A stretch of DNA of 6,463 bases, taken from IMG/VR virus record IMGVR_UViG_2740892046_000005. One strand, given 5' to 3'. The position numbers were made by a program, and so were the translations under genes. The DNA comes from a virus (taxonomy: Duplodnaviria > Heunggongvirae > Uroviricota > Caudoviricetes). Of the stretch, positions 1 through 6,463 are shown one piece after another. The notes beneath the pieces were generated by a model. The model was not told the DNA's origin. It did not search any database and was given only the letters and a program-made list of their open reading frames with translations. Numbering within the stretch: position 1 is the first letter of the stretch; each line of letters starts with the position of its first letter.

Positions 1-197
1 TGAAGACTGGGTGATGAGTCATGTTCGCTGCTTCCAGTGGTTGGGTGGCGTTCCTGAACTTGTTGTTCCGGACATGATCAGACATGAGATAAATGAAGGG
101 GGATCCGTGAGATAAATAACGAATTGGAGTGGGTTAACATGGGTTCTGGTGAACAGAACTGAAATTCTTTTCCGCTATACGATAGATAAGTCGGGCA

Positions 198-227
198 TTG
201 AAATCATCCTTCCTGGCAACTTAGAAT
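198..227 (+). promoter_or_regulatory. Candidate sigma70 promoter: TTGAAA (198-203), 18-bp spacer, TAGAAT (222-227)
   Basis: Both hexamers are 5/6 matches to consensus with acceptable spacing, in an AT-rich (~43% GC) stretch about 45 bp upstream of the 271 ATG. Motif match only; no experimental support. Confidence 0.3.
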
Positions 228-270
228 CGAGTTTGCTGAAACATGACCCGTAACAAAAAGGATGATTCCA

Positions 271-432
271 ATGACTACTCAAAACAATAAGCATGACAGC
301 CTGGATTACTCAGAAAAGCCCAAAAGCAAGCACATTGTGACGTTCGAGCGCGATTCCGGTAGAAAAGGAGAATCGTCTTCCTCTGCCAATAAAACCACTA
401 TGCCGGCAGCTCCTGCTCCAGGGAAAAAATAA
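271..432 (+). CDS. Hypothetical small hydrophilic protein (53 aa), convergent with the membrane protein gene
   Basis: ATG at 271 preceded by AAGGA at 9-nt spacing; TAA stop at 430-432; translation MTTQNNKHDSLDYSEKPKSKHIVTFERDSGRKGESSSSANKTTMPAAPAPGKK. Below the length cutoff of the supplied ORF track. Short, low-complexity and with no recognised homology, so it may be spurious. Confidence 0.3.
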   Translation: MTTQNNKHDSLDYSEKPKSKHIVTFERDSGRKGESSSSANKTTMPAAPAPGKK

Positions 433-435
433 ACA

Positions 436-1068
436 TCATTCATCGTTCGTTGCACGAACGCGCCTGATCTCCACTCTGGCAATCTGATCTGCTGGAATAT
501 AGGTTGCCAGAGCTCCCCAGTACTTATCAACCACGCCTTTATACTCTTCCCATTCGTTACTTCCTGAAGGGCTGCTGTGCGTGACGTAAAGAACCATATC
601 GCCTTTATTTCCCAGGGTAAACGGACCGTTAGGCCACTCTTCAAAGTTCCCTGGCAGCCGTGACATCATACCGGAACCATCGCGAAGAATCACTCTGACC
701 TCGGTGACGCTGAAGCCTGTTTGATCAAACATTGCCTGCCATGCTGAGCTGGTATTGTCAGACCATGAAATATCATTATTCCACAGTAATCTGTACATCC
801 ATTTGCGACCGTACCTGCGCCACCACGCACCGCATGTAACGGCACACAGAAGTGCTGGGGGGGTTGCCAGCCAGGCATTCAGACCTGCCCACATAACAGC
901 CTGGTAAGCCATCATTGCTGTCAGGCCAAAAATCAGCGAAGAAAAAGTCACCTCAATGGGTTTGTGGTGATCCTTCAGCCCCACATTCGCAATAAAATAC
1001 CCAATATAGCCACTGGTCAGGGTCACCAGTGTTGCCCATGGCAGATTTAATAACGAAACGTCAAACAT
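436..1068 (-). CDS. Hypothetical membrane protein, 211 aa: three predicted N-terminal transmembrane helices plus a ~110-aa soluble C-terminal domain
   Basis: Track ORF 436..1146 begins at a TTG; the internal ATG at 1068 has a GGGAGA Shine-Dalgarno 5 nt upstream, so MFDVSLLNLPWATLV... is the preferred start. Hydrophobic segments LPWATLVTLTSGYIGYFIANVGL, IEVTFSSLIFGLTAMMAYQAVMWAGL and LATPPALLCAVTCGAWW. GC is lower (~48%) than the early operon (~55-57%). No family recognised. Confidence 0.75.
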   Translation of the reverse strand: MFDVSLLNLPWATLVTLTSGYIGYFIANVGLKDHHKPIEVTFSSLIFGLTAMMAYQAVMWAGLNAWLATPPALLCAVTCGAWWRRYGRKWMYRLLWNNDISWSDNTSSAWQAMFDQTGFSVTEVRVILRDGSGMMSRLPGNFEEWPNGPFTLGNKGDMVLYVTHSSPSGSNEWEEYKGVVDKYWGALATYIPADQIARVEIRRVRATNDE

Positions 1069-1082
1069 ATTTTCTCCCTGCA

Positions 1083-1137
1083 TCCTGAATATTACATAGA
1101 GAGCATAAAAAAAGCACGGTAAAGGGTCTACCGTGCT
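1083..1137 (-). promoter_or_regulatory. Candidate activator-dependent (Mu Pm-like) promoter: 9-bp dyad centred near 1125, T-tract, -10-like TAATAT (1094..1089), no clear -35
   Basis: On the minus strand the -10-like hexamer starts about 31 nt downstream of the dyad centre and about 20 nt upstream of the 1068 ATG. This matches my recollection of the Mu middle promoter, where Mor binds a dyad centred near -43.5 and there is no -35 hexamer. Inference only. Confidence 0.3.
1106..1137 (-). terminator. Rho-independent terminator downstream of mor (stem AGCACGGTA / TACCGTGCT, 7-nt loop, then TTTTTTAT)
   Basis: Perfect 9-bp inverted repeat at 1113-1121 and 1129-1137. On the minus strand it is followed directly by six T residues then AT. 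It lies 45 nt after the mor stop codon. Confidence 0.6.
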
Positions 1138-1182
1138 CTTATACAATAAGGAGATTTTTGAAAGGACTTTAACAAGCAGGAA

Positions 1183-1581
1183 TTATCTGGATTTGTTAAC
1201 GTCTTTCGTCTCCTCTGGCAGATCTTCATCAAACAACCTGCCCTGCATCCGATCCAGTTCTTCTTTTCTGACCCGCTTAACCACGCTGTAGACCCACTGA
1301 AGCGAAACACCAAACTTGCGGGCCAGTTCGTGGTGGTTGCGTCCGTTAAACTCCCTGAAGATTTCCCGGTCGCGCTGACTGACCTTCCATACCATGCCCA
1401 TCGGGAAATAAACGTTTTGCCCGCCCCAGACCTGCATCATTCGGTTCGCGACGGCCTGACCAATCTGGTCGGCAATTGCGGGCTCAATATCAATAATCTC
1501 GCGAACGGTCTCAGAGGTATGCTGTGCCAGCTCCACCAGGAGTTCCGGCCCTTTACTTCGAAACTGATTCAGGTCGCTCAT
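1183..1581 (-). CDS. mor: Mor/C-family transcriptional activator (Mu middle operon regulator-like), 132 aa
   Basis: ATG at 1581 with GGGAG 7 nt upstream. C-terminal region GGQNVYFP...EFNGRNHHELARKFGVSLQWVYSVVKRVR matches the Mu Mor pattern as I remember it (GGGQVYIP...DFNGRNVSELTTRYGVTFNTVYKAIRRMR). Sits directly after the gemA-like gene as in Mu. Confidence 0.85.
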   Translation of the reverse strand: MSDLNQFRSKGPELLVELAQHTSETVREIIDIEPAIADQIGQAVANRMMQVWGGQNVYFPMGMVWKVSQRDREIFREFNGRNHHELARKFGVSLQWVYSVVKRVRKEELDRMQGRLFDEDLPEETKDVNKSR

Positions 1582-2005
1582 GTTTGACTCCCGCAGCTCT
1601 GCGCTGCCACTTCTTCAGTTTCTCAATAACACTGCTTGCCTGTTCAGTACTGAGCCAGCGCAGGGCGCTGATGCCCGTTTCCCGCTTGATCCACCGCGCT
1701 AATGCATTTTCTGAACGGTCACGAACAATGCCGGCAGCAGCCATTTCAAGCCATAGCGCACGGATTTTCCTGGACTGCGGATGGTTATCCAGCGGTAAAC
1801 CGGAGCTGGCTTTTCCGGCAGGCTTAACGCGAAAGCCTTTCCTTTTCATGGATTCCAGCACGCAGTTTAGTTGTGTGGTATCCATTCCTTTGGTTGAGGC
1901 TTTACCGGTCAGCCCCTGTAACATCTGGCGGTAGGTGTCTTCATCCATACCCAGTTCATTACGGGCAATATGAATGAGCTGGATAAGACGTTGTTTAGTC
2001 ATCAT
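1553..2005 (-). CDS. gemA: GemA/gp16-like protein (DUF1018 family), 150 aa
   Basis: Preferred start is the ATGATG at 2005..2000 with AGGAG 5 nt upstream; the track's upstream ATG at 2044 lacks a Shine-Dalgarno. N-terminal LIQLIHIARNELGMDEDTYRQMLQGLTGK matches the conserved GemA N-terminal signature as I recall it. Overlaps the mor start by 29 nt. Confidence 0.75.
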   Translation of the reverse strand: MMTKQRLIQLIHIARNELGMDEDTYRQMLQGLTGKASTKGMDTTQLNCVLESMKRKGFRVKPAGKASSGLPLDNHPQSRKIRALWLEMAAAGIVRDRSENALARWIKRETGISALRWLSTEQASSVIEKLKKWQRRAAGVKHERPESVSK

Positions 2006-2210
2006 CGTTGCTCCTTTTACCTGCGCCACCGATATAATCGACATATAAAGGAAGCGCCACAGGCCAGCACAGGAACATCACCGACCAGCTAATCCAGTAG
2101 CCAGCACCACTGTAACGTGAATAAAACCCTGAACGGCGGTGCAGTTCAGCAGTACACCAACCGACAAAACAATACCAGAACAGGGCACATACAACAGATT
2201 CAGCCGTCAT
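1995..2210 (-). CDS. Hypothetical small membrane protein, 71 aa, two predicted transmembrane helices
   Basis: ATG at 2210 with a G-rich stretch upstream; translation MTAESVVCALFWYCFVGWCTAELHRRSGFYSRYSGAGYWISWSVMFLCWPVALPLYVDYIGGAGKRSNDDD. Its TAA stop overlaps the gemA ATGATG start and its own start overlaps the upstream 76-aa ORF stop. The track's 123-aa version starts at a TTG inside the upstream gene. Confidence 0.4.
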   Translation of the reverse strand: MTAESVVCALFWYCFVGWCTAELHRRSGFYSRYSGAGYWISWSVMFLCWPVALPLYVDYIGGAGKRSNDDD

Positions 2211-2430
2211 TCTGAATATCCCCCCAACTGATATGAATATTACGGGCAGCAATGACAGGGTCGTTATTCCACCATGCACCTGACATGTATTTTTCAACCT
2301 GTTCGCGTCCGGCAATAACACCAATTGTGATCCCCGGCCTGACGTTCTTAAAAAAGGCGCGGGCAAAAAGGTATCTGGCAGATATTCGGCAGGCTTTTAA
2401 TTTCCGGCTTTTACCTGATAGCGTAATCAT
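2200..2430 (-). CDS. Hypothetical basic protein, 76 aa
   Basis: ATG at 2430 overlaps the upstream stop as ATGA; GGAGG lies 4 nt upstream. No recognised homology. Confidence 0.5.
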   Translation of the reverse strand: MITLSGKSRKLKACRISARYLFARAFFKNVRPGITIGVIAGREQVEKYMSGAWWNNDPVIAARNIHISWGDIQNDG

Positions 2431-3110
2431 CTGGCCTCCAGTTTCTGTTGTTCCTGCCCACTGACCGGGCGGTGCAGTCTGACGTTCTGCCCTTCAAGAA
2501 ACCCCGCATAGCGCGAGGCGTCGCCATTGCGGCTTCTTCCCGGTTTACGCGCCCTGGTGGTTTGCGTCTGCGGGTATTTATGTTCCAGCCACTGCTGCAT
2601 CAGTTCACGTTCGTCATCGGTCAGGGCGAAGGACTGTATTTCACTGATAACGGCCAGCACCCAGCCTTCAGCAAACTGGTCACCACGGCTGGTACGGGTG
2701 GCAGTTTTTATTCTTTTGTTCTGTGCGCTGATATATTGCTGACGCGCCTTTTTCAGCTGGCGGGCCAGCACTTCCCAGGTGTACGCAGCCAGTGCAGCCC
2801 GTTCCCGGTTGCCGTAGAACCCCACACCCGGATATGTGCCGGGGTGAATGATGGAGTTAACACCAAATGCCTCGCGGATGATGTTCATCAGGCCCAGCAT
2901 GTAGCGCGGTGGACGGAGGCTGCCTGTCGGCCAGTAGTGACTGATGGTTTCATCAATATCACTCATGGCGATGTCGGAATGTGTGATGCCGTGAACATCC
3001 ATCAGTTTACGGGCACGGCGCAGTGCCAGAGCGGCCTCGTGAGGGTTGCCGGATGCGGCCAGCGCCAGCAACTTTTTCAGTTTCTCAATGTGTTTATCCT
3101 GGTCTGTCAT
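2427..3110 (-). CDS. DUF2786-like phage protein, 227 aa
   Basis: ATG at 3110 overlaps the MazG-like stop as ATGA; GGAG upstream. N-terminal IEKLKKLLALAASGNPHEAALALRRARKLMDVHGI resembles the DUF2786 signature recalled from phage and plasmid proteins. Function unknown. Confidence 0.75.
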   Translation of the reverse strand: MTDQDKHIEKLKKLLALAASGNPHEAALALRRARKLMDVHGITHSDIAMSDIDETISHYWPTGSLRPPRYMLGLMNIIREAFGVNSIIHPGTYPGVGFYGNRERAALAAYTWEVLARQLKKARQQYISAQNKRIKTATRTSRGDQFAEGWVLAVISEIQSFALTDDERELMQQWLEHKYPQTQTTRARKPGRSRNGDASRYAGFLEGQNVRLHRPVSGQEQQKLEAR

Positions 3111-3412
3111 TGTTCAGTATCTCCGGTGTACATGACGCCCAGCCGTGCGGCAAGGCGTTCCAGTTTTTTCTGTTTGTGGAAGTCAATCAGCCGGTCCATT
3201 CCCTGAAGGCGCAGCTGCTCTGTCATGATTTCCACGTCTGCCAGCTCTGCCGCGAGGTCACTTTCGCTGCCCTGTCCGTTCAGGTTGCGGGCGGCACTGG
3301 CCGCCAGTTCAGCGGCCTCTTCTGTCAGTTTCAGGGCCTGTGCGTCCGGCCCGAAACGCTGCAGGGCCAGACGGTAGAGGGCGGTGCGGGTGAGTTCGGT
3401 GTTCCGTGTCAT
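3107..3412 (-). CDS. MazG-like all-alpha nucleoside triphosphate pyrophosphohydrolase, 101 aa (putative)
   Basis: ATG at 3412. Contains the paired acidic motifs EEAAE and ELAD separated by about 19 residues, as in the MazG/HisE family EExxE...ExxD signature, and is the size of small phage MazG-like proteins. Motif-level call only. Confidence 0.7.
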   Translation of the reverse strand: MTRNTELTRTALYRLALQRFGPDAQALKLTEEAAELAASAARNLNGQGSESDLAAELADVEIMTEQLRLQGMDRLIDFHKQKKLERLAARLGVMYTGDTEQ

Positions 3413-3421
3413 GCCGCGCCC

Positions 3422-3694
3422 TCAGTGTTTCCGGTCGACGGTGATGTGCAGGCCGCCTTCTGCAGTGGTTTCCATCCGGTACGGCACCTCATGCTCTGCC
3501 GTGTGGGTGAGTGTGTTCATCAGTACCTGCAGGGCAGCCTCCTTTCCGTTGGTCGCCACAATGGCCTGTGTGGCCATGCTGATTAGCGCCGTCAGGACGT
3601 GCTTCACATCGGTGAGGTCGCGGCATTCACACTCGTTGACATAGTGTTCAACAAGGGTTCGGGTGCGCTGTCGTGCTTCCTGTGGGGTAATCAT
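3422..3694 (-). CDS. Hypothetical protein, 90 aa
   Basis: ATG at 3694 overlaps the zinc-ribbon gene stop as ATGA; GGAGG 7 nt upstream. No recognised homology. Confidence 0.65.
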   Translation of the reverse strand: MITPQEARQRTRTLVEHYVNECECRDLTDVKHVLTALISMATQAIVATNGKEAALQVLMNTLTHTAEHEVPYRMETTAEGGLHITVDRKH

Positions 3695-3885
3695 TGCGCG
3701 TCCTCCCTGTCAGGGCGGGAGAATTCCATGACGGGCACGTCCGCCGAAAAATGCTGGCTGCAGTACGGGCAGACCAGGGTGACACGTACTGCAGGTATGT
3801 GATACTTACCGGACATCACGGCGATGGCGCTGTGAAAACGCAGGGCTGTTATATCCCTCTCGCACTGAATACATTTAAATATCAT
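3691..3885 (-). CDS. Small zinc-ribbon protein (CxxC...CxxC), 64 aa
   Basis: ATG at 3885 with GAGGAG 9 nt upstream. Cys pairs at residues 5/8 (CIQC) and 39/42 (CPYC). First gene after the only sizeable intergenic gap in the operon. Confidence 0.65.
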   Translation of the reverse strand: MIFKCIQCERDITALRFHSAIAVMSGKYHIPAVRVTLVCPYCSQHFSADVPVMEFSRPDREDAQ

Positions 3886-3905
3886 AATTTAATTCTCCTC
3901 TGTTT

Positions 3906-3938
3906 CCGGCGTGCAGAAGCCCACGGCGCTGACGCCGG
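3906..3938. other. GC-rich inverted repeat (CCGGCGT ... ACGCCGG, 19-nt spacer) beside a ~45-bp AT-rich tract (3939-3982), between gam and the zinc-ribbon gene
   Basis: 7-bp arms seen directly. No U-tract follows on either strand, so it is not a classical terminator. Possible internal regulatory or RNA-processing element. Confidence 0.25.
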
Positions 3939-3982
3939 AATAAAAAAGAAAATGTTTTTATTAAATAATTAACGTGGTGTGT

Positions 3983-4513
3983 TTACTGCACATCCTGCTC
4001 AAAAGGAATTATTGAAAAATCCTCAATGTCGCTTTTAATGGAAATACCGGGAATATTTTTCACGGCCTCTTTTTCATTCAGAATGGCATCTTTATTTATT
4101 TCCTCCTTTACACGAATAAAGCGCTCAAGCCCCAGACGTCTCAGCAGTTCAATGACATTATCCGCCCCGCGAATGCTGACTGACGGCGGACGGTTTCGCC
4201 ACTGCACCTCGCCGGTGGTGAGGTTAGCGAACTTCACCTTCCCGTTGCCGGTCAGTTCATCACGGTGCGCCTCACACCATGTCTGGATACCGGACTGCAG
4301 TTCGGCCATGCGTTTTTTCAGGCTCTCGGTGAGCGGGGCATAACGTGCAGTGATGTCGCCAATGGTGTCATTCATTTCTGTTTCAGCCCTGACCAGTTCA
4401 CGTTGCGCGTCACCAAGCAGTCTGATTCCCTCAATGACCTCTTCGCGTGTCCCCGGCACCCAGAGTGCTGCTGCGGCTTTGATACGTTTTGCCCCTTTTG
4501 TACTTTTTGCCAT
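3983..4513 (-). CDS. gam: Gam-like host-nuclease inhibitor / DNA end-binding protein (Mu Gam family), 176 aa
   Basis: ATG at 4513 with AGGAGG 9 nt upstream. Extended similarity to Mu Gam as I recall it, for example ETEMND, WCEA(H/N)RDELT, GKVK(F/T)ANL, PPSVSIRG, LGL(E/Q)RFIR, EINK(D/E)AIL and the C-terminal IEDFSIIPFEQ. Confidence 0.9.
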   Translation of the reverse strand: MAKSTKGAKRIKAAAALWVPGTREEVIEGIRLLGDAQRELVRAETEMNDTIGDITARYAPLTESLKKRMAELQSGIQTWCEAHRDELTGNGKVKFANLTTGEVQWRNRPPSVSIRGADNVIELLRRLGLERFIRVKEEINKDAILNEKEAVKNIPGISIKSDIEDFSIIPFEQDVQ

Positions 4514-4540
4514 ATTTTATGACTCCTCCTGTTGTGCTGA

Positions 4541-4810
4541 TTACCACAAAGATTCCGGCCACACGACGCGACAGCCGTGCAGTTCGAAAACGCCCTGACG
4601 GAAATATCCCCTGTGGTCATGTCCGGTATACAGATAACAGGCCTTTCCCTGCTCAAGCATGCGCATGCAATGCGCACTCCGGGAAACGCGGATGACAGGT
4701 TTGTTACCCCTGATGGTGATGCTTTGTACATCCGTGTTCGTCGCCTTAAGCGCCATAATGGCTGACTGCACTTTGCTGATTTGCTGGTTGATACCTGTGG
4801 TGGATTTCAT
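4541..4810 (-). CDS. Hypothetical Cys/His-containing protein, 89 aa, immediately downstream of B (position of kil in Mu)
   Basis: ATG at 4810 lies 2 nt after the B-like TAA stop, suggesting translational coupling, with a weak GGGG Shine-Dalgarno. No recognised homology; the kil analogy is by position only. Confidence 0.55.
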   Translation of the reverse strand: MKSTTGINQQISKVQSAIMALKATNTDVQSITIRGNKPVIRVSRSAHCMRMLEQGKACYLYTGHDHRGYFRQGVFELHGCRVVWPESLW

Positions 4811-4812
4811 TA

Positions 4813-5979
4813 TTAAACCCCTTTGACAACGTCAGCGTTGACCTGTGGAACCCCGATTTCAGCGGCCAGATTCATGGCGGCTATCACCAGGTTACTGACG
4901 GCCAGCGGATACAGCAGGCTGACCATATTTTTACGATGACTTCCCGGATTGCTCAGGCGGGCACGTATGGCATCCACTGCGCTGGCGTCCATAATGTCCG
5001 TCAGTTGTTTACCGGCCCGTTGCAGTTTGAACGTCAGAAATTCTTCAAGGTTATTGTCCAGAGGCAGAAGTTCGACCACCTCACAACGCTGAACGACTTC
5101 ACGGACTTCCATATTGCGTTCAGACAGTTTTGTCGCCAGTTCCGGCTGGCCAATCAGCACGATGGACAGCAGTTTTTTGAAACCGGACTCCAGCTCAAAA
5201 AAGCGTTTGAGGTGTTTCAGTGTCGGAATGGGCAGACTGTGGGCCTCCTCAATCACCAAAACGTGGCTGAACCCCGCCTGGCTGCTGTCTTTCAGGACGC
5301 GATGCAACTGGCGAAAGCGGGCGTCCTGACTGCGTCTGATGCTTTCCAGTGGTGCGATGGTACTGATAATGGCTTCGGCAATCGCTGCTGCCTTCAGGGT
5401 TTTCCCTTTCACATCGTTGTCTTCCATAGCGATGATGTATGGCTCGATAACAATTACCGGCGCATTCTCGCGGTTGATACGTTCAGTCAGGTCGCGGCGC
5501 AGCGTGGATTTACCCGCACCGGACTCACCGATGACGGCCATAAACCCACCATGACGGGCTGTCTGGTACAACGCCTCACGCACGTAGCGAATGTCCGGGG
5601 TGGTGAACACATCATCAGAACCCTGCATGGCTTCATCGGCGAACGGGTCACGGAAAAGACCAAACGCTTTTTTGGTTGCTGGAAATAACACCTGTTTTTT
5701 GAGTAACATATTCTCTTCCTCACTGAGGCTCGTTTTATCTGTGGTACCCGCTGTACGGGGCGTGGCTGCGCCCTGTACAGCATCAAAACTCTTCGTTGTA
5801 TCAATCCCCTGACTTTCCAGCCAGGACGCAAGACGCCGGCGCACTTCTCCGGGGCTGGTGCGGGGCCACGCGTTATGATTCACAATCTGGGCCAGCGTGG
5901 CCTCAGAAACATCGACAGCTCTCGCCACCACCGCCTGTGGGATACGGGCCTCTTTCAGTTGCTGCTTCAGTACCAGCAT
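4813..5979 (-). CDS. B: Mu B-like DNA transposition ATPase (AAA+ with N-terminal HTH), 388 aa
   Basis: Preferred start is the ATG at 5979 with GAGGAGG 5 nt upstream. Walker A GESGAGKST and Walker B-like HVLVIEEAH; N-terminal HTH-like IPQAVVARAVDVSEATLAQIV. Lies directly downstream of the transposase-like gene as in Mu and Tni-type elements. Confidence 0.85.
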   Translation of the reverse strand: MLVLKQQLKEARIPQAVVARAVDVSEATLAQIVNHNAWPRTSPGEVRRRLASWLESQGIDTTKSFDAVQGAATPRTAGTTDKTSLSEEENMLLKKQVLFPATKKAFGLFRDPFADEAMQGSDDVFTTPDIRYVREALYQTARHGGFMAVIGESGAGKSTLRRDLTERINRENAPVIVIEPYIIAMEDNDVKGKTLKAAAIAEAIISTIAPLESIRRSQDARFRQLHRVLKDSSQAGFSHVLVIEEAHSLPIPTLKHLKRFFELESGFKKLLSIVLIGQPELATKLSERNMEVREVVQRCEVVELLPLDNNLEEFLTFKLQRAGKQLTDIMDASAVDAIRARLSNPGSHRKNMVSLLYPLAVSNLVIAAMNLAAEIGVPQVNADVVKGV

Positions 5980-5989
5980 GTTTTCCTCC

Positions 5990-6463
5990 TCAGTTGCCGT
6001 TAACAATGCTGATAACACTGCTGCGTGCCGGCGTGGTCAGCGTGGCCATGACTTCATCCAGTGCAGCTTCCGGTACGCCGTCCGGGTACTGTGCCGTTAA
6101 CTGGCGGTAATGTTCCGGCGTCCAGGTAAGGCCGTCGGCGCTGAACTTATCGCGCAGGGCTTTCGCGGCCTCCACATGAGTCATGGGACGTTGTTCAGTG
6201 CGCGGCCCGCGTACGTCAGAGGCCTGACCACGCTTCGGCATATAGGCCGGAAGTGTGGTGTCGTCGATATGTTTATACGGGTCAAGCCGCCCGCCGAACG
6301 GCAGCGCCTTCGCCTTGCGTGCGGCAGCTGCATCTGCGGCGTTGTCTGTACCGGTGACCAGCGCTTCGGTTTCTTTTGCCGCCATCTGCGCCGGGGTTTC
6401 CGGCAGGGCTTTGTAACTTTCGCCAAATACCGCCGCGCCTTCAGCAAAGCCAAACTCGTTCTT
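5990..6463 (-). CDS. C-terminal portion of a transposase A-like protein (5' end beyond the window)
   Basis: The frame is open from the window edge to the TGA at 5992..5990, and that stop sits inside the Shine-Dalgarno of the B-like gene. Assignment rests on synteny (A then B) in a Mu-like context, not on recognised motifs. Confidence 0.55.
   Translation of the reverse strand, partial: KNEFGFAEGAAVFGESYKALPETPAQMAAKETEALVTGTDNAADAAAARKAKALPFGGRLDPYKHIDDTTLPAYMPKRGQASDVRGPRTEQRPMTHVEAAKALRDKFSADGLTWTPEHYRQLTAQYPDGVPEAALDEVMATLTTPARSSVISIVNGN

Follow-up and report, generated by a model that had tools for sequence, protein, structure and literature searches.

The window analysed here is a stretch of 6,463 nucleotides from a virus of the Caudoviricetes (IMG/VR record IMGVR_UViG_2740892046_000005), and all positions given are positions in this window. 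Sequence comparison identifies its left part as the end of a transposable, Mu-like prophage, and close to this end lies the subject of this study, a minus-strand gene at 436..1068 encoding a membrane protein. An initial annotation, made from the letters alone, had treated it as a lone gene. This proved incorrect: a small gene at 271..432 on the opposite strand converges on it, and such a small open reading frame (ORF) accompanies the membrane gene at 30 of the 33 distinct loci compared. Together the two genes form a conserved convergent cassette, for which we found neither a characterised relative nor a description in the literature searched. The features of the cassette and of the gene beside it are listed here, with lengths in amino acids (aa) and nucleotides (nt).

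436..1068, minus strand: gene for a 210-aa inner-membrane protein with three predicted helices (N-out/C-in) whose cytoplasmic part, about residues 108-205, is read as a beta-barrel of the Sm/LSm-like kind; the evidence comprises a PHROG match, homologues and a structure model.

271..432, plus strand: small partner gene, 53 aa, product hydrophilic and probably disordered; matches PHROG 15726 (1.2e-41), corresponds to WP_001571575.1, and has an alternative ATG at 262.

1074..1078, minus strand: Shine-Dalgarno (SD) sequence GGGAG of the membrane gene, read from the sequence.

1110..1140, minus strand: intrinsic terminator between mor and the membrane gene, a 14-pair stem with a T7 run.

198..227, plus strand: sigma-70-type promoter of the small gene, TTGAAA-18-TAGAAT, agreeing with the consensus at 10 of 12 positions.

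1183..1581, minus strand: mor, last gene of the outward-pointing early operon, annotated in RefSeq as 'Mor transcription activator family protein', with Pfam Mor at the same place in relatives.

About 115..1222, no strand: optional segment, in which both genes of the cassette lie together with the terminator and the final 13 codons of mor, delimited by blastn against cassette-less prophages, by GC content and by its presence in 132 genomes as against 642.

The ORF of the membrane protein runs from an ATG at 1068..1066 to a stop codon at 438..436, and RefSeq places a hypothetical protein, WP_001571573.1, at identical coordinates. The initial annotation had recognised a real ORF here, and only its length of 211 aa, in which the stop codon had been counted, needs to be reduced to 210 aa. 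PHROG 12870 was matched over the full length of the protein (1.9e-133), and database searches recovered 69 close relatives in a word-index search and 501 more distant clusters (50% identity, E<=1e-3), nearly all of about 200-215 aa. Between the window gene and an 89%-identical E. coli allele there are 71 substitutions, distributed over the three codon positions as 12/11/48. Because of this end-to-end match, the equal length of the relatives, the codon-position bias and a confident AlphaFold2 model (built with 36 homologues; mean pLDDT 82.4), we conclude that the ORF is a genuine gene and that a chance ORF is excluded. The small gene differs from another E. coli allele by 19 substitutions, at codon positions 5/1/13, and these patterns indicate that both genes of the pair are under purifying selection.

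The gene also has its own translation signal, as had been noted: the GGGAG at 1078..1074 stands 5 nt before the ATG, and a GGAG-like SD is equally spaced in relatives. Its position past an early terminator was likewise borne out, the stem and T-run at 1140..1110 lying between mor and the gene. A hairpin with a T-run occurs at this position, with differing stem sequences, in 13 of 17 aligned Enterobacterales loci; the exceptions are L008, L064 and L066, together with L021, which shows no clear hairpin. A promoter scan called no sigma-70 promoter between the terminator and the ATG. A Mor-dependent promoter was also sought; the hairpin sequence that precedes the membrane gene was not found again in front of the late genes of L001, a locus of 25 kb. 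Just past the terminator, a conserved TATTCT may be a weak -10 element.

In the AlphaFold2 model, the protein begins with three helices, at residues 11-28, 37-60 and 65-97, in agreement with the three N-terminal transmembrane helices proposed initially; their mean Kyte-Doolittle (KD) values are 1.09, 1.34 and 0.92. A short helix (108-114) and a beta-rich domain reaching to residue 205 follow. Averaged over 92 homologues, the number of lysines plus arginines per sequence is 0.23 at the N-terminus, 1.97 in loop 1, 0.49 in loop 2 and 4.22 after helix 3. Since basic residues are concentrated in loop 1 and past helix 3, the positive-inside rule indicates an N-out/C-in topology with a cytoplasmic C-terminal domain. 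This domain (residues 98-210) is hydrophilic, with a mean KD of -0.55, and contains 5 Trp, 10 Gly and 11 Ser, which agrees with the soluble, Trp/Gly/Ser-rich domain of about 110 aa described before; Trp makes up 5.7% of the whole protein (12 residues).

Topology prediction combined with a fold search, one of the checks proposed in the initial annotation, gave a name to this domain. In a Foldseek search of the PDB, LSm/Sm chains ranked at the top with probabilities of up to 0.99, but with E-values of just 0.08-0.3, and one of the structural matches was an LSm domain in complex with a peptide. We read the C-terminal domain as an Sm/LSm-like small barrel, on modest scores. Domains of the Sm fold usually assemble into 6-7-membered rings and can bind short peptides. 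The earlier statement that no family could be named thus stands for sequence families, with no match for the membrane protein, and nothing informative for the small one, in Pfam, NCBIfam and PADLOC scans, and no longer stands for the fold. When all PDB sequences were searched with a profile at E<=10, just RRP4 and ATP synthase subunit c came up, both at chance level, and the PHROG matches of both proteins are to families of unknown function only.

The closest named family is DUF6338 (PF19865), which is uncharacterised. Its hidden Markov model did not match the window protein even at E<=1. Of 92 diverse relatives, 14 matched it at E<=0.01; relatives scored 28.5 (P0050), 25.9, 25.4 and 23.9 bits against a gathering threshold of 26.5, and most of those that matched fell below this threshold. 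The alignments are collinear over model positions 54-143 of 205, covering helices 2-3 and the start of the C-terminal domain. On this similarity, the family of the membrane protein appears to be a divergent branch at the edge of DUF6338.

The evidence for the pairing comes from the small gene and its counterparts. In the window, the stop codons of the two genes are 3 nt apart. At the 30 of 33 loci mentioned above, the opposite-strand ORF encodes 34-65 aa and either lies directly against the membrane gene's end or shares a few bases with it, and the most distant loci, where the membrane protein is only about 26-33% identical, have it too. The contexts of the pair include the ends of Mu-like prophages, the head-tail region of HK97-like prophages, an RcGTA-like tail module, a P2-like prophage, a plasmid, a Bradyrhizobium locus and a housekeeping region. 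All 16 of the small ORFs examined closely start with ATG, and 14 of them (not those of L005 and L029) have a recognisable SD. The 53-aa protein of the window contains the motif LDYSEKPK and ends in a proline-rich basic tail, PAAPAPGKK, and this arrangement is common. Among 29 small proteins, with 17% Pro and 15% hydrophobic residues, 27 have PxP or PxxP within the last 12 residues, 27 have K or R in the last four, and 16 have PxxPx[K/R] within the last 12. One or two copies of [Y/F]-x(1-3)-P-[K/R/Q/T/P] occur in 20 of the 29, in the form LDYSENPK in Enterobacterales; the conserved N-terminal motif [LV][DE]YSENPK is distant from the gene junction. Judged from composition alone, the small protein is probably disordered.

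Upstream of the small ORF, the block cATTGAAAcCATCCTTC-N8-ACTAGAATC is kept in E. coli, Klebsiella, Salmonella, Citrobacter, Serratia and Symbiopectobacterium. Positions 196-211 (CATTGAAATCATCCTT, the -35 element and spacer) are the inverse complement of positions 258-273 (AAGGATGATTCCAATG, which contains the ribosome-binding site and start codon of the small gene itself). For 10 Enterobacterales loci, RNAalifold predicted 14 pairs, 4 of them with compensatory changes, but with an unfavourable covariation term. The two elements CATTGAAATCATCCTT and AAGGATGATTCCAATG might be an operator pair or form a structure restricted to read-through transcripts.

The small ORF was not found in 3 of the 33 loci (L022, L024 and L063). 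These belong to one clade assigned to insect-symbiont genomes, two of them to Pantoea persica and Arsenophonus nilaparvatae, the third being an IMG/VR contig. From the basic juxtamembrane stretch that follows helix 3, the membrane proteins of L022, L024 and L065 have lost four residues, YGRK. The L065 contig runs no further than the stop codon of the membrane gene, and this locus does not count for or against the small ORF. In L063 the stop codon of the membrane gene is read through.

The E. coli locus L039 is a mosaic relative to the window, being 83% identical in the helical N-terminal part, 50% in the C-terminal domain and 31% in the small protein. A single exchange apparently replaced barrel and partner together. 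Their covariation in L039 is not independent evidence of co-evolution, since the two regions are neighbours on the DNA. As a separate observation, two loci carry an extra gene between mor and the membrane gene: L039 (E. coli SCU-105) at 2200-2436 and L008 (Serratia marcescens) at 7690-7977. Their products, of 78 aa (...NPPPPPPKC) and 95 aa (...SRPPRPLSKG), have proline-rich basic tails too.

For the comparison with related prophages, a further check proposed in the initial annotation, 5426 complete E. coli genomes were searched. Of these, 642 contain the mor/gemA region of such a prophage, mostly at about 96% identity, and only 132 yielded the gene for the membrane protein, even with a sensitive search. 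The gene is therefore optional: about 80% of the sister prophages lack it, so that some 510 genomes without the cassette stand against 132 with it. In the cassette-less prophages, mor is the last gene and host DNA starts about 140 bp beyond it. Since blastn against the cassette-less loci L035 and L037 aligned only positions 75-114 (82% identity) and 1223-1700, the accessory segment extends from about 115 to 1222. The GC content of this segment is 46.2%, against 54.3% for 1223-6463; the membrane gene has 49.8%, and its flanks have 36.8% (1069-1182) and 42.9% (75-435). Beside the earlier estimate of a GC content 5-10% lower, the insert is about 8 points below the rest and the gene alone about 4.5 points. 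The view that the gene is a separately acquired moron gains support from the occurrence in 132 as against 642 genomes, the segment boundaries at 115 and 1222 and the lower GC content, and separately acquired, moron-like cargo is a supported description of segment 115-1222. With morons it shares presence and absence among close relatives and a differing base composition; as to own signals, the small gene has a promoter, and the membrane gene has an upstream terminator and no called promoter.

Beyond E. coli, prophages of Klebsiella, Salmonella, Serratia and Citrobacter carry the gene directly past Mor at the tip, at 55-70% identity. More distant members lie amid the head-tail joining genes of HK97-like prophages, in what the ORF sequences, taken without a domain search, suggest to be an RcGTA-like tail module, on a plasmid of 16.6 kb, at the end of a Synechococcus phage genome of 20 kb, in Bradyrhizobium beside a resolvase-type HTH gene (Pfam HTH_7, a weak match) and gibberellin/terpene-type genes, and, in one case, in a chromosomal housekeeping region. 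On a P2/186-like prophage contig (L082, 3935-4666), a 243-aa member directly follows the tail gene gpD and adjoins the repressor region; its partner (...APPSPPPPQRK) is proline-tailed and overlaps the extended C-terminus of the 243-aa member.

A frameshifted allele (L086-L088, gene 3001-3632) splits the membrane protein into ORFs of 125 aa and 85 aa and leaves the 53-aa small gene intact. It is present on at least 24 contigs, and the three E. coli loci L086-L088 represent two insertion sites, one next to a CHASE7-domain gene and the other next to flgK. Because about 80% of the sister prophages lack the gene and the frameshifted allele still transposes, a core lysis or structural role for the membrane protein is unlikely. 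A lysis or structural gene present in all relatives, the finding that was to speak against the moron view, was not what we saw; the window protein has no Pfam or PHROG holin match either.

Three further features describe the prophage end itself.

75..117, no strand: prophage terminus with a TG start and two direct TGAGATAAAT repeats (85-94 and 108-117), read from the sequence; 75-114 is common to cassette-less prophages.

1..74, plus strand: fragment of the istA transposase gene of ISEc12 (IS21-like), flanking non-phage DNA; in 1480 genomes of E. coli it matches annotated istA at 100%.

142..170, plus strand: terminator-like hairpin facing inward from the prophage end, found by a consensus scan (7-pair stem and T-rich tail).

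In all 114 of the 114 full-length matches in complete E. coli genomes, homology begins at window base 74/75, and the genes past this boundary vary from genome to genome (cheA, gudD, zraS, yfiB and others). Because homology always begins there while the flanking genes differ, the comparison identifies base 75 (TG...) as the end of the prophage, this copy of which is inserted into an insertion sequence (IS) element. The TGAGATAAAT repeats are probably transposase-binding sites, and the hairpin at 142..170 could bar host transcription from the cassette. From the prophage end, the leftward genes are those for the membrane protein, mor, gemA/gp16, gam, an ExeA-type ATPase, a DDE transposase and ner. 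The rightward genes are the small ORF at the prophage end and, beyond ner, the repressor, followed later by holin, transglycosylase and late genes, with a Dam methylase located between repressor and holin in the prophage neighbourhood. The early operon runs outward, towards the closer of the two genome ends, which is the reverse of Mu, and the late genes lie beyond the repressor. BcepMu shares this inverted early-arm layout. An inverted early arm is known from the transposable phage KS10 (PMC2628397). The initial annotation had been right that no C-like activator follows mor in the window; its expectation of one, drawn from Mu, fails because the early operon is inverted and the phage genome stops at base 75. 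Elsewhere in the early operon, the minus strand of 1995-2430 contains a 123-aa ORF (1995..2366) whose translation looks hydrophobic by eye and which overlaps the start of gemA; in its place RefSeq has a pair of small genes, at 1995-2210 and 2200-2430.

The orientation of the two genes suggests how they could be expressed. The membrane gene is always co-oriented with the upstream phage operon, which is the early operon in Mu-like prophages and a head or tail operon elsewhere, and the small gene is always opposed to it. A scan of the window revealed no terminator separating the membrane gene from the small gene, so the 3' ends of both transcripts should overlap. On the simplest reading, the small gene would dominate in the lysogen, and the membrane protein would be supplied by strong operon transcription or by a weak undetected promoter. 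Outside phages, the membrane gene must own a promoter, because its upstream neighbours are divergent.

Taken together, these findings led us to propose, with a probability of roughly 40%, that the pair consists of a membrane-perturbing effector restrained by a small disordered partner, in the manner of SpoIISA/SpoIISB. The cell-lysing SpoIISA consists of three membrane segments and a cytoplasmic domain, the natively disordered SpoIISB neutralises it by wrapping round this domain, and the crystal structure of the complex has been solved (PMC3057836). In the present pair, the membrane protein would be the effector, and an Sm-like ring would gather 18-21 helices, which could perturb or open the membrane. 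The small protein would be the antagonist, docking its motifs and its tail (PxxPx[K/R], which is class-II-SH3-like, at about half of the loci) on the aromatic-rich barrel. The strong promoter of the small gene would drive a transcript antisense into the membrane gene and keep the antagonist dominant in the lysogen, and strong same-sense operon transcription, or loss of a labile partner, would shift the balance to the effector. Competing phages might be excluded or abortively killed in this way, or the host might become addicted to the element. The proposal is consistent with the pairing, the purifying selection, the proline-tailed partners, the predicted cytoplasmic barrel, the promoter asymmetry and the status as optional cargo; oligomerisation, mutual binding, toxicity and an anti-phage effect we infer.

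Several points weigh against a SpoIISA/SpoIISB-like pair. First, the proposal has to postulate toxicity, pore formation, oligomerisation and binding. Second, the cytoplasmic domain of SpoIISA is GAF-like and the one described here Sm-like, and the PDB profile search at E<=10 revealed no sequence similarity to SpoIISA or, above chance level, to any other PDB sequence; for neither protein of the pair did PADLOC-DB v2 return a family at E<=1. Third, L063 has an intact membrane gene without a detectable small ORF. Fourth, convergent gene order is unusual among protein-protein toxin-antitoxin pairs. Fifth, in the Mu-like setting the membrane gene is co-oriented with a lytic operon and has no detectable promoter of its own, so the gene may act in lytic growth instead of in lysogens.

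A wider claim, possible although doubtful in our view, would make the pair the first known member of a hitherto undescribed module, widespread in phages and other mobile elements, in which a convergent microprotein holds a ring-forming effector in check. Such a module would be a class of its own among membrane systems for toxin-antitoxin action, abortive infection or exclusion. The Y-x-x-P motifs and the basic proline tail would dock on the Sm/SH3-like barrel, and the overlap of the convergent transcripts would determine how much of each product is made.

The rival that survives best is non-toxic superinfection exclusion or envelope modification (compare HK97 gp15, P22 SieA and T4 Imm), in which the membrane protein would keep the DNA of other phages from entering or change a membrane machine of the host, and the small protein would be an adaptor or regulator. 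The cassette is optional cargo at a prophage end and lies in structural modules of other temperate phages; such places are classic for exclusion genes (PMC3594210, PMC10883804). An inner-membrane protein with a cytoplasmic domain would suit this role, and the transposable phage Fc02 carries exclusion genes (PMC9936078). We nevertheless consider it unlikely, since family searches revealed no homology to any named exclusion protein, the near-universal convergent partner would be left unexplained, a plasmid and a chromosomal housekeeping region carry the pair as well, and no lysogen-active promoter was found for the membrane gene.

The same lack of a promoter in the window, together with the constant co-orientation of the membrane gene with an upstream lytic operon, is what a lytic-cycle helper would predict. 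This would be a holin/antiholin-like or depolarising accessory that adjusts the timing of lysis or, while the phage replicates, blocks secondary infection, switched on by operon read-through and opposed by the antisense small gene. The helical part is weakly similar to LydA-type holins (Foldseek, BFVD, E 0.02-0.4), and 1 of the 92 relatives matches Phage_holin_9 at 5.6e-4; the former similarity, however, is limited to the membrane helices and is unspecific. The absence of the gene from about 80% of the sister prophages, the transposing frameshifted allele, the separate holin and transglycosylase elsewhere in the prophage, the strong terminator that precedes the gene and the members outside phages all argue against such a helper, which we regard as quite improbable.

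About equally improbable is a host-beneficial role by lysogenic conversion, as a small regulated channel or transporter in which an Sm-like ring beneath a helix bundle would be gated or plugged by the proline-tailed peptide. The gross layout is that of MscS, a heptamer in which three N-out/C-in helices precede a beta domain of the Sm-like kind in the cytoplasm. Helix 1 has a conserved face of polar and small residues, helix 3 is rich in Ala and Gly, loop 1 contains His-His, and one member of the family lies amid housekeeping genes. Against this, hhalign of the 92 homologues with E. coli MscS gave a probability of 0.4%, the C-terminal alpha/beta vestibule domain of MscS has no counterpart, and the distribution is overwhelmingly on mobile elements. 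Homology to MscS was rejected on this hhalign result, the lack of a Pfam MS_channel match and the lack of MscS among the PDB sequence matches.

Very remote is the last alternative, that the small ORF is non-functional, conserved merely through terminator or antisense-RNA constraints (Pro being CCN and Lys AAA), and that the membrane protein acts alone: although the Lys-Lys codons of the window (AAAAAA) form a T-run directly past the membrane-gene stop and the ORF is of low complexity and evolves fast (25-44% identity where the membrane protein has 50-69%), it has an SD and ATG at 14 of 16 loci (not L005 and L029), a third-position substitution bias (5/1/13), a conserved dedicated promoter and [LV][DE]YSENPK kept away from the junction, and analogous proline-rich proteins have been seen beside a DUF6338 gene by mass spectrometry (PMC10433244). 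An origin as a terminator or T-run artefact was rejected on the same SD, ATG and codon-position grounds, and also since alphaproteobacterial Lys codons are AAG and give no T-run and several tails do not end in Lys.

If the pair does work as an effector restrained by its partner, its combination of convergent genes, a proline-tailed small protein and three helices bearing an Sm-like barrel would be an architecture new to the few known membrane systems of the exclusion and toxin-antitoxin kinds. The family, with about 500 sequence clusters bordering on DUF6338, would gain a function, and the proline-rich microproteins detected by mass spectrometry beside a DUF6338 gene would be accounted for. 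If the pair proves to be without a phenotype, the cassette stays an ordinary moron of unknown function. In either case, the outward tip of this E. coli Mu-like prophage lineage is a cargo site, and the natural prophages with and without the cassette (132 and about 510 genomes) are ready-made controls.

Comparison with known families and systems places the pair near several of them. DUF6338 proteins are alike in length (model of 205 aa), and relatives of the window protein are collinear with them over helices 2-3 and the start of the C-terminal domain; the window protein itself is not matched, and membership in a family without a known function would explain nothing. The likeness extends to the neighbourhood: in Pseudomonas stutzeri, three proline-rich small proteins (<50 aa, 44-114 spectral matches) are predicted to be co-transcribed with a DUF6338 gene (PMC10433244). 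Morons and exclusion or defence genes (HK97 gp15, P22 SieA/SieB, lambda RexAB, P2 old/tin/fun) resemble the cassette as optional inserts in near-identical prophages, with a differing base composition, their own transcription signals, a location at genome ends or in structural regions and, in part, a membrane protein as product, but they are not homologous to it and have no convergent microprotein partner. The holin/antiholin pair LydA/LydB of P1 likewise combines a small three-helix phage membrane protein with a possibly opposing second gene, whereas the 110-aa barrel described here is not holin-like and the prophage has a separate holin. MscS shares the helix layout, the Sm-like domain and a plausible ring assembly, and differs in its own alpha/beta domain, in having no small partner gene and in not being among the best structural matches. 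The parallel behind our proposal is SpoIISA/SpoIISB: the window protein has three membrane segments and a cytoplasmic domain like SpoIISA, and a small hydrophilic partner, by its composition probably disordered, is encoded next to it (30 of 33 loci) like SpoIISB, although the genes form an operon there and are convergent here. Sequence and fold exclude membership in the SpoIIS family, and the likeness that we propose is thus one of mode of action, not of descent.

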